Source: a virus
Length of the DNA: 6,065 nt
Virus record (IMG/VR): IMGVR_UViG_3300020041_000006
Span: 1 to 6,065 of that record
Reading direction: 5' to 3' (one strand)
Positions 913-6,065 of this stretch are shown here, one piece after another. The notes under the pieces were generated by a model. That model made no database searches. It saw only the letters and a list, made by a program, of their open reading frames with translations, and was not told the origin of the DNA. The position numbers were made by a program, and so were the translations under genes. The first letter of the stretch is position 1; each line of letters begins with the position of its first letter.

Positions 913-1104
913 ATGTCTGATACTAAACAACCTTTTTATAAGTCGAAAGCTTTTTGGACGCTCGTTTCTTCCATTGTTGCTGCTTTGGCTGCCTTTTTTT
1001 TGTCATCGTGTGCTGCTCAGGCCAGGGTGCAGCGCAATGGCGTTCATATTGACACAGTACGTGTCGATTACATCATCCGTTCTAACAATTTAACTCGCAT
1101 TTAG
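913..1104 (+). CDS. Small lipoprotein precursor, 63 aa. It has a signal peptide with lipobox L-S-S-C, and the predicted mature lipopeptide is 31 aa. The ORF track extends it to an upstream ATG at 802.
   Basis: MSDTKQPFYKSKAFW (Lys-containing n-region), TLVSSIVAALAAFF (h-region), LSSC lipobox (nt 1000-1011, Cys codon 1009-1011), then CAAQARVQRNGVHIDTVRVDYIIRSNNLTRI. The TAG stop at 1102-1104 is 1 nt before the VP2 ATG. The 802-912 extension is Arg-rich, has mixed third-position usage and overlaps the 810-887 hairpin, so I prefer the start at 913. Confidence 0.65.
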   Translation: MSDTKQPFYKSKAFWTLVSSIVAALAAFFLSSCAAQARVQRNGVHIDTVRVDYIIRSNNLTRI

Positions 1105-2768: not shown

Positions 2769-3092
2769 ATGATTCAAGTTCACGTCGTTATTCGCCGAAT
2801 TAACCCGGCTCTTAAAATCGACCTCGCCCAGATAGGTCGTGTCAAAGATGGTCATTTTGAACCCCTTCCTTTTAGCGCCCTTAAGGATACTCCCATTGCG
2901 CCTTTTCTAAAGAGTTCGCATATTAGCGATTCACTTTACGTCGATCATTCGGAAGTTTTCAACCTTATTGTCGCTTGTGGAGGTCTTTCCGGTTCTACTG
3001 TTGATTTTTTCGATAATACGATAGTACTCATTTTTGATTCTGAACTCAACTACGATGAAAGCACGACGAAAGAAGAAGGGACGAGGAACTAA
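2769..3092 (+). CDS. Hypothetical acidic protein, 107 aa, ORFan.
   Basis: ATG lies 11 nt after the previous stop. Same strand and codon style as the neighbours. No recognisable motif. Confidence 0.7.
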   Translation: MIQVHVVIRRINPALKIDLAQIGRVKDGHFEPLPFSALKDTPIAPFLKSSHISDSLYVDHSEVFNLIVACGGLSGSTVDFFDNTIVLIFDSELNYDESTTKEEGTRN

Positions 3093-3109
3093 AGTAGTGA
3101 CTCGCCCGC

Positions 3110-3538
3110 TTGGTGGAAAGGTTCTTTGATTACGAAGCTCCTGGGAGAGTTTTTTCTTCCCCAGGAGTTTTTGTCCTCAAACTCACCGAATTTATTCGGT
3201 ATATAGAGCGTGAAGTGGAGCCATGGAGCTCGAAGACGCGAAGCGTCCCGGCCGTTAAGGCCGTCGAGCGGCGTAACGAAACAGTTTTCGCGCTCGAAAG
3301 TACCGTCTTTCGAAGCGCAAAGTATTATTCTTCGATTATGGACACATTTGATTTTCGCCCTCGTTTTTCTCCTGTGATCGGCAGCACCCCCTACCGTTTT
3401 TCCATTGGAGCGTACCGCGGTAAAAAACGCGTTGTTATCGCCTGGTTTTCCGAGGAAGGACCCGCTAATGATTATCTTATTCGCTGTCGTCTTGATTATC
3501 CTGCTATCAAATTTGATTGTCTTAGAAGTTTTTTGTAA
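3110..3538 (+). CDS. Hypothetical protein of uncertain extent. It is 142 aa from TTG 3110, or 66 aa from the only in-frame ATG at 3338. Its stop overlaps the VP4 start.
   Basis: The frame is open from 3101. The TAATG overlap with the VP4 ATG (stop 3536-3538, ATG 3538-3540) suggests translational coupling. The 3' part (3338-3538) has T/C-rich third positions like the other genes. The 5' part has many A/G-ending codons, contains the terminator-like hairpin and the hairpin cluster, and starts only with TTG or GTG. Confidence 0.45.
   Translation: MVERFFDYEAPGRVFSSPGVFVLKLTEFIRYIEREVEPWSSKTRSVPAVKAVERRNETVFALESTVFRSAKYYSSIMDTFDFRPRFSPVIGSTPYRFSIGAYRGKKRVVIAWFSEEGPANDYLIRCRLDYPAIKFDCLRSFL
3138..3172 (+). 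terminator. Intrinsic-terminator-like hairpin: 8-bp GC-rich stem plus a T5 tract.
   Basis: CTCCTGGG (3138-3145) pairs perfectly with CCCAGGAG (3160-3167) across a 14-nt loop, followed by TTTTT (3168-3172). It is preceded by GAAG, which can pair with the T-tract. It sits 46 nt downstream of the stop at 3092. Confidence 0.4.
3185..3318 (+). other. Cluster of four further stem-loops in a locally GC-rich stretch. It is a candidate structured ssDNA or RNA element.
   Basis: ACCGAA-TTTA-TTCGGT (3185-3200). GACGC-GAA-GCGTC (3235-3247). CGGCC-GTTAA-GGCCG (3249-3263). GCGCTCGAAAG-TACCGT-CTTTCGA(A)GCGC (3290-3318; 11 bp with one bulge). My hand count over 3221-3320 gives about 59% G+C, visibly above the rest of the genome. 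Confidence 0.45.
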
Positions 3539-4608
3539 TGCCTTGTTCGTCACCCATATGGATACGCAATCGTCGCTATTTTGACAAGAAGAACCCTTGT
3601 CGCGATGGCTCTGATGTCGCGAAGTCTGCTTTAGCTCTCCGTCCTTGGGATATTGCCCGCCAGTGGCTTATGGTCCCTTGTGGAAAGTGCGAGGAATGTC
3701 TTCGTCGTCAACGCAATGATTGGTTTGTTCGTTTGGAACGCGAGCTCGCTCGTTGTAGGGCTGAATCTCAGCAAGTTATTTTTATTACGATAACTATAGC
3801 TCCTAAGTATTACGACGAAGCGCTGCAAGATCCCTCTAAGTTCATTCGACGATGGAATGAGCGTGTTCGCCATAAGCTCGGTCACTCTTTCAAGCATGCG
3901 TTTTTTCAGGAGTTTGGCACTCATCCAGAAACAGGATCGGCGCCGCGTCTTCATTTTCACGGCTTTCTTTTCGGGACCAATTGTATGTATAACGAAATTA
4001 GGTCGGCCGTCCGTGATTTAGGTTTCGTTTGGCTTGCAAGAGGCACGCATAAGCGCGCACGATACGTTGTCAAATACGTTACTAAGCAAATTTATTTTGA
4101 CCCTACAGAAATATCTAATCAAAATGTCGTTTTAGATGGAAAGTCTACATCTTTATCTTGCCTCCTCCAACATCGCCGTTATACGCGAAAATTCGTATCT
4201 GCTGGCGTTGGTGATTTTCTTGGTTACATGCCTCGTCCTTCTGCTCGTACTTCGACGTGGTCTTATTTTGATTTTGAGAAGCGCATCAATTACAATTACT
4301 CGATTCCTCGATATTACCTTAGGTACCTTAAACAAGAGGACGAAGTTTCGCGTTCGGTTGCTGCTGCTGATTCTTATGCACGTTTTAGCAAGTCTCCTTT
4401 GGTTAAACGTATTGTGTCTCTGTGTGTTGATCGGTTCAATCTCCATTCCTCCGTATCCCGTAGAGCGTCATATACGTGGGAACAAAAACAGATAATGCGC
4501 TTCGCTGCGTCCTCTCGCAAGATGCCGGATTTCGATCCTCCTACTTGGCTGGACTTGGACATTCTTCAATTCTGGCAAGATCATTACAAACTTCAACTAA
4601 TTACTTAA
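3538..4608 (+). CDS. VP4: VP4 replication initiation protein, 356 aa: an HUH rolling-circle endonuclease, phiX gpA-like.
   Basis: N-terminal MPCSSPIWIRN and VPCGKCEECLRRQ (Cys cluster, nt 3679-3699). Motif I is IFITITI. The HUH motif is LHFHGFLFG (nt 3949-3972). The double-Tyr catalytic motif is YVVKYVTK (nt 4063-4086), which has the same Y-V-x-K-Y-V-x-K pattern as phiX174 gpA. Confidence 0.95.
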   Translation: MPCSSPIWIRNRRYFDKKNPCRDGSDVAKSALALRPWDIARQWLMVPCGKCEECLRRQRNDWFVRLERELARCRAESQQVIFITITIAPKYYDEALQDPSKFIRRWNERVRHKLGHSFKHAFFQEFGTHPETGSAPRLHFHGFLFGTNCMYNEIRSAVRDLGFVWLARGTHKRARYVVKYVTKQIYFDPTEISNQNVVLDGKSTSLSCLLQHRRYTRKFVSAGVGDFLGYMPRPSARTSTWSYFDFEKRINYNYSIPRYYLRYLKQEDEVSRSVAAADSYARFSKSPLVKRIVSLCVDRFNLHSSVSRRASYTWEQKQIMRFAASSRKMPDFDPPTWLDLDILQFWQDHYKLQLIT

Positions 4609-4611
4609 TTT

Positions 4612-6065
4612 ATGGGAAAACAACCCTTTATTTCTCACGCCGTCAATGGCTACTCTCGCTACGATGTCCCTGAGAGTAAGGCCTTTACGTGTACGCCGGG
4701 TATTTTATATCCAGTGCGAATCGATTTTATTAACGCTCGAGACCGCGTTTCTATCGAGCAGGGTATTGATGTTCGCAGTAATCCTCTTGCTGTCCCGACA
4801 TTTAATCCCTACACTGTTCGACTTCATCGTTTCTGGGTGCCGCTTCAGTTGTATCACCCCGAGATGAGGACGAATAGCAGTAAGTTCGATATGAATGATT
4901 TGAGCTTGAACTTTATTGCCACTTCGTCGACCGGATCCTACCCGTTTACTACGAACAATTATCCCTACTCCAATTCGCTGCTTCGTTGGTTGCGCGCAGT
5001 CCCGGCTTCTATCCCGACGACAACCTCCAGTAATGTTCCTATGTCGGCCAGCCTTTCGTCTGCTCAGTTAGGATACCCCTTGGGCTGGTGTACTGCCGAT
5101 TCTTACCTTGCTTATTGGGATATTGTCCGTAATTATTACGGCTATTCTCAGTGGGGTCTCTATTCTTTTGCCTGGCCCAGTAGCTGGTATCTCATCCCCA
5201 ATAGTACTGGCGCTGCATATAATGTCCTTCAGTTCAGCGATGTTCAGACGTTTTTTTCGCAAAGATTTGGAAATCTTGAATTCTTAGATGCTTATTTCGA
5301 GAGCCAATTCTACCCCTCGGCTGTGCCATCGTCGAATAATACATATAATAGAGGAAATTTATTTTCTCAGATACTGCTTTCGGATCTTGGTGCTACGATT
5401 ACTGCTTCTAAGGATGGTTATCCTGTTTCTTCTCTTTACCCTGGAAGTACCTCGTTGTCTACCTCGGGTCCCGCCGATCAATTTGCCACCAATCCCAGCG
5501 AAACAACCCTCACCTCGCTTGGAGCATTTCTCGTGTCCCACCCAATGGCTGTTATACCTTCGAATCCCGATCGTTATAGCCGCCTGCTTCCCGTTGGTTC
5601 TTCCGAAGGTGTTTCTATGTCTGGCGTTTCGACTATACCACAGTTGGCTATTGCTTCGCGGCTTCAAGAGTATAAGGATTTGCTTGGCGCTGGAGGGTCT
5701 CGTTATAGCGATTGGTTGGAGACTTTTTTTGCGTCAAAGATTGAGCACGTCGATAGACCTAAGTTGCTCTTTAGCGCATCGCAGACTATTAATGTTCAGG
5801 TTGTCATGAATCAAGCTGGATTTAATAATTTTGGAGGAGACGCCTCTATGGGTCCTTTAGGTCAGCAAGGTGGTGCTATTGCCTTTAATGAGCGCCTTGG
5901 TCGTCGTCAATCTTACTATTTTCGCGAGCCTGGCTATATGATTGATATGTTGAGTATTCGTCCTGTTTATTACTGGTCAGGCATATACCCCGATTATCTT
6001 CATTATACTGGTCCTGATTACTTCAATCCGATTTATAATGATATCGGATATCAAGATGTTCCCGG
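4612..6065 (+). CDS. VP1: Major capsid protein VP1 (phiX F-like jelly-roll), N-terminal 484 codons. It runs off the window end and continues at 1-458. The full product is 596 aa on the 5,944-nt circle.
   Basis: ATG at 4612 lies 3 nt after the VP4 stop. I translated every codon from 4612 to 6065 by hand and found no stop. The product begins MGKQPFISHAVNGYSRYDVP..FNPYTVRLHRFWVPLQLYHPEM and contains GGSRYSDWLETFF..DRPKLL and LGQQGGAIAF, which are characteristic Microviridae VP1 blocks. The codon at 5947 equals window position 3, the start of the 3-458 ORF. Third codon positions are T/C-rich, as in the other genes. Confidence 0.95.
   Translation, partial: MGKQPFISHAVNGYSRYDVPESKAFTCTPGILYPVRIDFINARDRVSIEQGIDVRSNPLAVPTFNPYTVRLHRFWVPLQLYHPEMRTNSSKFDMNDLSLNFIATSSTGSYPFTTNNYPYSNSLLRWLRAVPASIPTTTSSNVPMSASLSSAQLGYPLGWCTADSYLAYWDIVRNYYGYSQWGLYSFAWPSSWYLIPNSTGAAYNVLQFSDVQTFFSQRFGNLEFLDAYFESQFYPSAVPSSNNTYNRGNLFSQILLSDLGATITASKDGYPVSSLYPGSTSLSTSGPADQFATNPSETTLTSLGAFLVSHPMAVIPSNPDRYSRLLPVGSSEGVSMSGVSTIPQLAIASRLQEYKDLLGAGGSRYSDWLETFFASKIEHVDRPKLLFSASQTINVQVVMNQAGFNNFGGDASMGPLGQQGGAIAFNERLGRRQSYYFREPGYMIDMLSIRPVYYWSGIYPDYLHYTGPDYFNPIYNDIGYQDVP
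5945..6065. repeat. Terminal redundancy, right copy, identical to 1-121.
   Basis: Same comparison as for the left copy. The overlap is typical of assembling a circular contig. Confidence 0.95.

Follow-up and report, generated by a model that had tools for sequence, protein, structure and literature searches.

A conserved predicted mini-lipoprotein gene of gut microviruses and its possible roles at the host envelope

Several kinds of very small lipoproteins or membrane proteins are used by phages and plasmids to open, or to close, the envelope of their host. The colicin lysis or bacteriocin release proteins (BRP; Pfam Lysis_col, e.g., ColE7 Cel and the pCloDF13 BRP) are lipoproteins made as precursors of about 45-52 aa, for instance a 47-aa precursor with a 19-aa signal, that leave a mature lipopeptide of about 27-35 aa. 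Both their mature form and their signal peptide, which is stable and lethal, are toxic (PMC2896534 and the references it cites). The superinfection exclusion lipoproteins, such as T5 Llp and phi80/N15 Cor, are small stand-alone phage lipoproteins, and T5 Llp blocks secondary infection by binding FhuA, the outer-membrane receptor of the phage (PMC9586334; bioRxiv 10.64898/2026.03.26.714494). Among small phages, the phiX174 protein E is a single-gene lysis protein, overprinted inside gene D, in which the transmembrane segment is conserved and the tail is replaceable. Finally, the outer-membrane spanin subunits (lambda Rz1) and the unimolecular spanins (T1 gp11) act in the last step of lysis. How microviruses outside the phiX174 group leave their hosts is, however, unresolved, and earlier surveys could only point to M15 peptidases in a minority of genomes (PMC3394797, PMC9239249).

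We examined a stretch of 6,065 nucleotides of a virus (IMG/VR record IMGVR_UViG_3300020041_000006), referred to below as the window, in which an earlier note based on the sequence alone had pointed to a tiny lipoprotein gene immediately upstream of VP2, as a candidate lysis or superinfection exclusion factor. The lipoprotein gene described in that note is indeed there, and its identity as a lipoprotein gene is well supported. Its functional interpretation is only partly supported, since the conserved phage gene and its signal are confirmed, whereas lysis and exclusion, between which the note did not choose, remain readings that the sequence alone does not separate. The gene belongs to a compact, unannotated and phage-restricted family for which our literature searches, on microvirus lipoproteins and lysis proteins, found no description.

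A conserved gene with a lipoprotein signal

The window carries a 121-bp terminal direct repeat and is thus a circular genome of 5,944 nt, with all genes on the + strand: VP1 (4612 across the junction to 458), an acidic 102-aa ORF (471-779), the lipoprotein ORF (913-1104), the VP2 pilot protein (1106-2353), two ORFs of about 105 aa (2440-2757 and 2769-3092) and the VP4 replication initiator (3538-4608). These assignments rest on PHROG 8689 ('pilot protein for DNA ejection', E = 8e-9 for VP2), PHROG 942 and PF23343. The closest GenBank records are faecal 'Microviridae sp.' genomes from pigs, civets, rodents, lemurs and tortoises, at 69-76% nucleotide identity.

The ORF at 913-1104 (+), 63 codons plus a TAG stop, translates to MSDTKQPFYKSKAFWTLVSSIVAALAAFFLSSCAAQARVQRNGVHIDTVRVDYIIRSNNLTRI and ends 1 nt before the start of VP2. 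Its signal peptide (913-1008, residues 1-32) has a basic n-region with K5, K10 and K12 and the h-region AFWTLVSSIVAALAAFFL. It is followed by the lipobox L30-S31-S32-C33 (1000-1011) and by a predicted mature lipopeptide of 31 aa, CAAQARVQRNGVHIDTVRVDYIIRSNNLTRI (1009-1101), which is basic and is the one given in the earlier note. The hydrophobic core is about 17-18 residues (A13-L30), and not 14 as the note had it. The sequence passes a PROSITE PS51257-style rule, with a K/R in the first 7 residues, [^DERK]6-[LIVMFWSTAG]2-[LIVMFYSTAGCQ]-[AGS]-C and the Cys at position 33. It is the only ORF of the genome that does so, but as 0.14 such ORFs are expected per dinucleotide shuffle and 13% of the shuffles have at least one, the motif alone is weak evidence. 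Conservation is decisive, as the Cys and the small residue at -1 are kept in about 97% of 223 distinct homologues, in which -3 is L/T/A/M, -2 is S/A/T/V and -1 is S/G/A. An exception is found in four type B relatives (see below), which have an atypical Glu at position -2 (FFLESC).

This gene is real and under very strong purifying selection. Over 84 distinct orthologous DNA sequences, ATG913 is invariant and the entropy at codon positions 1/2/3 is 0.32/0.18/1.13 bits, so that third positions are saturated and the conservation acts on the protein rather than on a DNA/RNA element or an overlapping frame. Across 92 loci, it is the most conserved protein of the genome, with a median identity of 88.9%, against 85% for VP4, 69% for VP1 and 55% for VP2. 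A longer in-frame ATG at 802, which gives a 100-aa product and is used by many gene callers, is not supported, because the additional 111 nt (802-912) show no codon periodicity and contain indels among relatives; this extension is probably not translated. It overlaps two conserved non-coding elements. The first is a long hairpin at 809-887 (arms GTGCGCGG / CCGCGCA) followed by TTTTT, between ORF 471-779 and the lipoprotein gene, with an RNA folding energy of -36.3 kcal/mol (z = -2.1) and a consensus structure showing 2 compensatory pairs in 6 sequences; it looks like a terminator/attenuator or a single-stranded-DNA structure. The other is a nearly invariant block at 863-901, ACTGCAGGAGAGGCCGCGCATTTTTCTATCGTTCTTTAA, 12 nt upstream of the start codon, with at least 95% column conservation over most of its length in 91 distinct upstream regions, while the synonymous sites of the gene are saturated. 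A scan for sigma-70 promoters and terminators near the gene was at chance level, and no Bacteroidetes-type TTTG...TAnnTTTG promoter was found upstream of it.

The search with the single sequence found 380 clusters at 90% identity and a profile of divergent members found 650, while 41 GenBank microvirus records and 215 IMG/VR stretches encode the protein. The source annotations are 'hypothetical protein' or obviously spurious labels, and the 'VP2' of GenBank MG945680 that covers the homologue is a wrong-frame annotation and not a fusion. No meaningful similarity to described families could be found: there was no Pfam hit at E <= 1 for the 63-aa or the 100-aa form, no NCBIfam hit at E <= 10, no PHROG hit better than E = 0.096, to families of unknown function, and no PDB sequence match beyond E = 1.7. 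An exhaustive profile search of 1.84 billion representatives listed 69 hits, all of them small phage-type ORFs apart from P0210 (1455 aa, 17 repeats) and P0256, which are chance repeat matches, and no cellular homologue. AlphaFold2, run with a 25-sequence alignment, modelled with confidence only the transmembrane helix (one continuous helix over residues 12-41, pLDDT 88-91 over residues 11-30), the mature part having a pLDDT of 55-64.

Two modules joined at the lipobox cysteine

An unexpected feature of the family, which the earlier note had missed, is its modularity. In the type A family, to which the window belongs, F14, W15, T16, L17, A24, F28, F29, C33, G43, H45, D47, T48 and V49 are invariant, and the mature peptide has the core motif G-[VI]-H-x-D-T-V, whose G43, H45, D47, T48 and V49 are invariant in both alignments examined. 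The signal peptide (SKKFWTLVAAIVAALxAFF) is nevertheless the most conserved module, with a second-codon-position entropy of 0.11 bits against 0.25 in the mature part, and, among 61 representatives of 50%-identity clusters, K-2, F0 and W1 are invariant and T2, A10 and F15 nearly so. This is far beyond what export alone requires. Genomes whose VP1 is as close or closer to that of the window (66-76% identity) carry, at the same position upstream of VP2, a 65-aa ORF with the same signal peptide (SKKFWTLVASIVAALAAYF...SC) but with a different mature peptide, CTTRHYVVQSASSIKSGDTTRTTITYEQVGNFKRP, that we term type B (loci L093-L100 of our set are relatives in which the mature peptide differs). The exhaustive profile search revealed further mature types behind the same signal peptide. 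Conversely, the type B mature peptide, which forms 306 clusters of its own, occurs behind unrelated signal peptides in microviruses from birds, a blackfly and lemurs, always directly after a canonical lipobox Cys (loci L132-L135 and L137 are relatives with an unrelated signal peptide). The only element common to all combinations is the lipobox Cys at the junction, which we take as the strongest available evidence that this Cys is used as a lipoprotein processing site.

The acidic signal that exports lipoproteins to the surface in Bacteroidota, K-(D/E)2, Q-A-(D/E)2 or S-(D/E)2 at +2..+5 after the Cys (PMC5080379, PMC6222051), is absent: +2..+6 is AAQAR in the window, and D/E occurs in this stretch in only 5 of 223 homologues. 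The protein thus probably faces the periplasm, as the earlier note had proposed. A complication is that in about 30 of the 69 cluster representatives, and in 8 loci examined, the ORF has no stop after the mature peptide and continues for about 135 codons in the +1 frame of a real-looking downstream gene, to end in a strongly conserved basic tail, RRGGRRKGRPRPKIKTIPLGGSHL; read through, this would give a product of roughly 195 aa. In the window, this tail is a separate small ORF.

The position of the gene in the genome also varies, which the note did not report. It lies between the post-VP1 ORF and VP2 in the window and its close relatives, but between VP2 and VP4 in more distant phages, with VP1 only 23-32% identical. 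It therefore moves as a module, and its type does not follow the VP1 tree. The note had asked for lipobox ORFs at the syntenic position in related genomes, and all 25 of the closest GenBank genomes, picked by genome similarity, were found to carry a family member. A scan of one genome per prokaryotic species found the gene only in Alistipes, namely in A. montrealensis kh20 and an uncultured Alistipes, so that the note's guess of the host phylum was right. There, and in other Alistipes contigs, it is the first gene after the junction of complete microvirus prophages (lipoprotein, small ORF, VP4, VP1, ORF, VP2), inserted between a HIT/HTH_3 gene pair and znuA in either orientation, and no solitary copies were seen. 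The prophage of A. montrealensis kh20 lies at about 131.4-136.4 kb of NZ_JAGYXY010000001.1.

Lysis, exclusion or another envelope role

The absence of any recognisable endolysin, holin or peptidase, as stated in the note, is confirmed for all listed ORFs against Pfam, PHROGs and NCBIfam. The hydrophobic ORFs overprinted in VP4 (4136-4495) and in VP1 (5288-5809) are open in relatives, but they are no longer than synonymous-codon shuffles give (P = 0.42 and 0.15), and +1 frames are nearly stop-free in this genome. We therefore favour, although only tentatively and as less than an even chance, a role of the gene as the single-gene lysis effector of a microvirus whose hosts, in this view, are Alistipes-like Bacteroidales. 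The 63-aa product would be inserted in the inner membrane by its N-terminal signal, lipidated on Cys33 and cut by signal peptidase II, and the products would together damage the envelope or derail its biogenesis late in infection so that progeny escape, in the manner of the colicin lysis lipoproteins. What our analysis establishes is a real gene, strong selection at the protein level, a lipobox kept throughout the family, a two-module architecture, the lack of a surface-export motif, the presence of the gene in every close relative examined and the lack of another recognisable lysis gene. Actual lipidation and globomycin-sensitive cleavage, the final location, the lysis function and its target are inferred from sequence alone, as would be a toxic signal peptide, the activation of an outer-membrane phospholipase A or the binding of the phage's own outer-membrane receptor. 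A lysis role is in line with the conserved signal peptide, which is unusual for a mere export tag, with the size of the precursor and mature peptide, and with a distribution that looks essential, the gene being retained although it has moved between two genome positions. The three M15-peptidase microviruses examined, phiHBP1 (PMC13064476) and two IMG/VR relatives, which form a peptidase-bearing Bacteroides microvirus lineage, have no lipobox ORF, and none of the 136 other loci compared (134 of them microviral loci carrying the lipoprotein) has an M15 gene; the direction fits, but these closely related genomes are effectively one or two independent peptidase lineages. On the other hand, a lipoprotein has no precedent as a phage single-gene lysis protein, and a colicin-type quasi-lysis does not by itself remove the peptidoglycan that a 25-30-nm virion must cross. 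The ORFs that run on past the mature peptide are also hard to square with a precise 31-aa effector, and the Glu at -2 in four type B genomes is atypical.

The main rival, which we hold to be possible but rather unlikely, is superinfection exclusion or receptor masking, in which the lipopeptide would be delivered to the periplasmic face of the outer membrane and bind the receptor of the phage, thereby blocking secondary infection of infected or lysogenic cells and protecting released virions from inactivation on cell debris. Phage lipoproteins of this size without a partner are classically exclusion factors, the related phages are temperate, the first position in the prophages suits a gene expressed in the lysogen, and the discrete mature types, exchanged between phage lineages on one signal peptide, could reflect receptor specificity. 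Exclusion genes are, however, normally accessory and patchy, whereas all 25 closest relatives keep one in genomes of only about 7 genes. The type A mature peptide is also more conserved than VP1 and VP2, the proteins expected to contact a receptor, and occurs with VP1s only 23-32% identical to that of the window, and this model gives no reason for the extreme conservation of the signal peptide. It is less likely that the product is an uncleaved N-in/C-out membrane protein, an 'amurin' like phiX174 E that would inhibit a host membrane enzyme of cell-wall precursor synthesis or flipping, with the Cys conserved for another reason, or, in a variant of this idea, that the pre-protein jams the lipoprotein-maturation enzymes (Lgt/LspA). 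The conserved transmembrane segment with its replaceable tail, its small-xxx-small pattern (S19/S20-A23/A24-A27) and the continuous helix of the AlphaFold2 model would fit this reading. But the Cys follows a canonical lipobox and is the only element kept when either module is swapped, which is best explained by real lipoprotein processing, the type B mature peptides are conserved behind unrelated signal peptides, so that the tail is not dispensable, and the gene is not embedded in another one. Another envelope role is similarly unlikely, such as anchoring or assisting VP2/procapsid assembly at the membrane, promoting vesicle-mediated release, or disrupting the outer membrane as the last step of a pathway that otherwise relies on host autolysins. 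In the window the stop lies 1 nt before VP2, and the hairpin and block upstream suggest regulated expression together with VP2, but in many relatives the gene lies between VP2 and VP4, there is neither a spanin partner nor a C-terminal transmembrane segment, and such a role has no precedent. Finally, cleavage by signal peptidase I after A35-Q36-A37, which would release a soluble 26-aa periplasmic peptide and make the lipobox coincidental, is very unlikely: C-[AS]-A-Q-A-[RK] is conserved within type A and AQA is a good -3/-1 site, but the AxA motif is absent from the other mature types (CTTRH, CTGYQ, CSSYT, CASHK, CNAKQ and others), in which the lipobox Cys is kept.

The boldest form of the lysis hypothesis, which we regard as possible but doubtful, is that this family is the missing lysis gene of a large clade of gut (Alistipes/Bacteroidales) microviruses and a new class of single-gene lysis, a two-part lipoprotein whose released signal peptide and 31-aa lipopeptide both attack envelope biogenesis, possibly by jamming lipoprotein maturation or sorting like a protein 'globomycin', and which would have arisen by convergence with colicin lysis proteins. 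If the gene is lytic, it would be the first lipoprotein-type single-gene lysis system and a new 'protein antibiotic' lead against Bacteroidales envelope biogenesis; if it is an exclusion factor, it would be the first described for microviruses and a handle on their unknown receptor. The family has hundreds of sequence clusters, is linked to a cultivable host genus through complete prophages and is the only membrane-targeted small protein in these genomes, which makes the lysis question directly testable with one 192-nt gene, and a conserved signal peptide that reassorts with different mature peptides is an unusual evolutionary pattern.

Comparison with the described systems

The colicin lysis proteins share with the product of this gene a very small lipoprotein precursor and a mature lipopeptide of about 30 aa (about 28 aa for the colicin lysis proteins, 31 aa here), and they are encoded by a mobile element that must get a macromolecular cargo out of a Gram-negative cell. 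The functional importance of the signal peptide in BRPs finds here a parallel, although an indirect one, in its being the most conserved module. The gene is nevertheless not a member of this family by sequence, its precursor is longer (63 aa) because its signal is of 32 aa against about 19-24 aa, and it is found among microviral genes (VP1, VP2, VP4) of a phage of Bacteroidales, with no colicin or immunity gene, rather than at the end of a plasmid SOS operon of enterobacteria. BRPs, moreover, give quasi-lysis and not virion release. Llp and Cor are likewise small stand-alone phage lipoproteins, predicted to face the periplasm and without a partner gene, but there is no homology in the PHROG and Pfam searches, the mature part is half the size of that of Llp, and the gene is present in every close relative rather than patchily distributed, is more conserved than the capsid and pilot proteins and has a conserved signal peptide. 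With phiX174 E and other single-gene lysis proteins of small phages, it shares the context of a small lytic phage with no endolysin or holin, and one N-terminal transmembrane helix that is the conserved part, followed by a variable hydrophilic tail. However, E is overprinted, has no lipobox and is not processed, whereas this gene is free-standing, between ORF 471-779 and VP2, carries a lipobox kept throughout its family and has no family hit. As for the spanins, Rz1 and T1 gp11 also are short phage lipoproteins, but no ORF for an inner-membrane partner with a periplasmic coiled coil was found around 913-1104 on either strand, the genome has no holin or endolysin hit, and the C-terminal 31 aa are hydrophilic (hydropathy at most 0.47), without a transmembrane segment, and not proline-rich.

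Genome ends and non-coding elements

The ends of the window carry a 121-bp terminal direct repeat (1-121 and 5945-6065). The window is a circularly permuted, complete microvirus genome of 5,944 nt, and the VP1 gene (4612 to 458) spans the junction. Between ORF 471-779 and the lipoprotein gene, a conserved long hairpin can be found at 809-887 (GTGCGCGG...CCGCGCA), and it is followed by TTTTT. Its RNA fold gives z = -2.1, and two compensatory base-pair changes were observed among six relatives. This element may be a terminator/attenuator that sets the dosage of the lipoprotein and of VP2, or a single-stranded-DNA structure. A nearly invariant non-coding block, ACTGCAGGAGAGGCCGCGCATTTTTCTATCGTTCTTTAA, lies at 863-901, 12 nt upstream of the lipoprotein ATG, and it is far more conserved than the synonymous sites of the gene. 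A similar TCTnTATCGTTnCTTT stretch precedes the gene in the Alistipes prophage L091.

At 790-800, ACTTGATGATA resembles the core of the phiX174 origin nick site, ACTTG/ATA. It occurs once in the window, where 0.02 occurrences are expected by chance, and it is moderately conserved in relatives. It may be the nick site of the Rep protein (VP4). The only full match in the window to a Bacteroidetes-type promoter pattern (TTTG-N19-TAnnTTTG) is located at 2383-2413, just upstream of ORF 2440-2757. It is consistent with a Bacteroidota host, but its support is weak since 18% of shuffles give at least one match.

Prophages, variants and annotation of the lipoprotein gene

Complete microvirus prophages were found in Alistipes genomes (L091, at about 9.9-14.9 kb, and loci L092, L141, L143 and L144), always inserted between a HIT / HTH_3 gene pair and znuA-ABC transporter genes, in either orientation. 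This suggests that one recombination site is reused by divergent microviruses. Among the type-B relatives, which share the signal peptide but carry a different mature peptide, four loci (L094 3501-3704, L095 4490-4708, L096 2416-2625 and L099 3743-3946) have the lipobox variant FFLESC, with a Glu at position -2, and this falls outside the standard lipobox rules.

In phages where the lipoprotein gene lies before VP4, it often has no stop codon. It then reads through about 135 codons of the +1 frame of the next gene into a conserved basic tail, giving ORFs of 195-210 aa (L007 4688-5320; L091 9977-10585; L101 2432-3025; L102-L104; L106 1440-2027; L107 1523-2110). The tail has no nearby ATG in these phages, and frameshifting, a non-canonical start or a true fusion could each account for this arrangement.

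The public annotations of family members are wrong or spurious. In MG945680 (L003, 3402-5030), the annotated 'VP2' is extended through an alternative frame across the lipoprotein gene, while the source names of other members (P0260, P0305 and P0321) include 'chitin synthase regulator' and 'BrkB/YihY family membrane protein'. In many records, the gene is not annotated at all.

Overprinted frames compared with phiX174 genes

Long hydrophobic ORFs are found in the +1 frames of VP4 (4136-4495) and VP1 (5288-5809), and they are open in most relatives. However, they are no longer than synonymous-codon shuffles predict, because the +1 frames are almost stop-free in this genome, and they could mislead a search for overprinted genes of the phiX174 E type. 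A small basic ORF, MILNSTTMKARRKKKGRGTKVVTRPLGGKVL, is also present at 3034-3129, in the +1 frame over the 3' end of ORF 2769-3092. Its tail (RRGGRRKG...PLGGSHL) is strongly conserved in distant relatives, and it looks like a DNA-packaging peptide of the phiX J / gokushovirus VP8 type.
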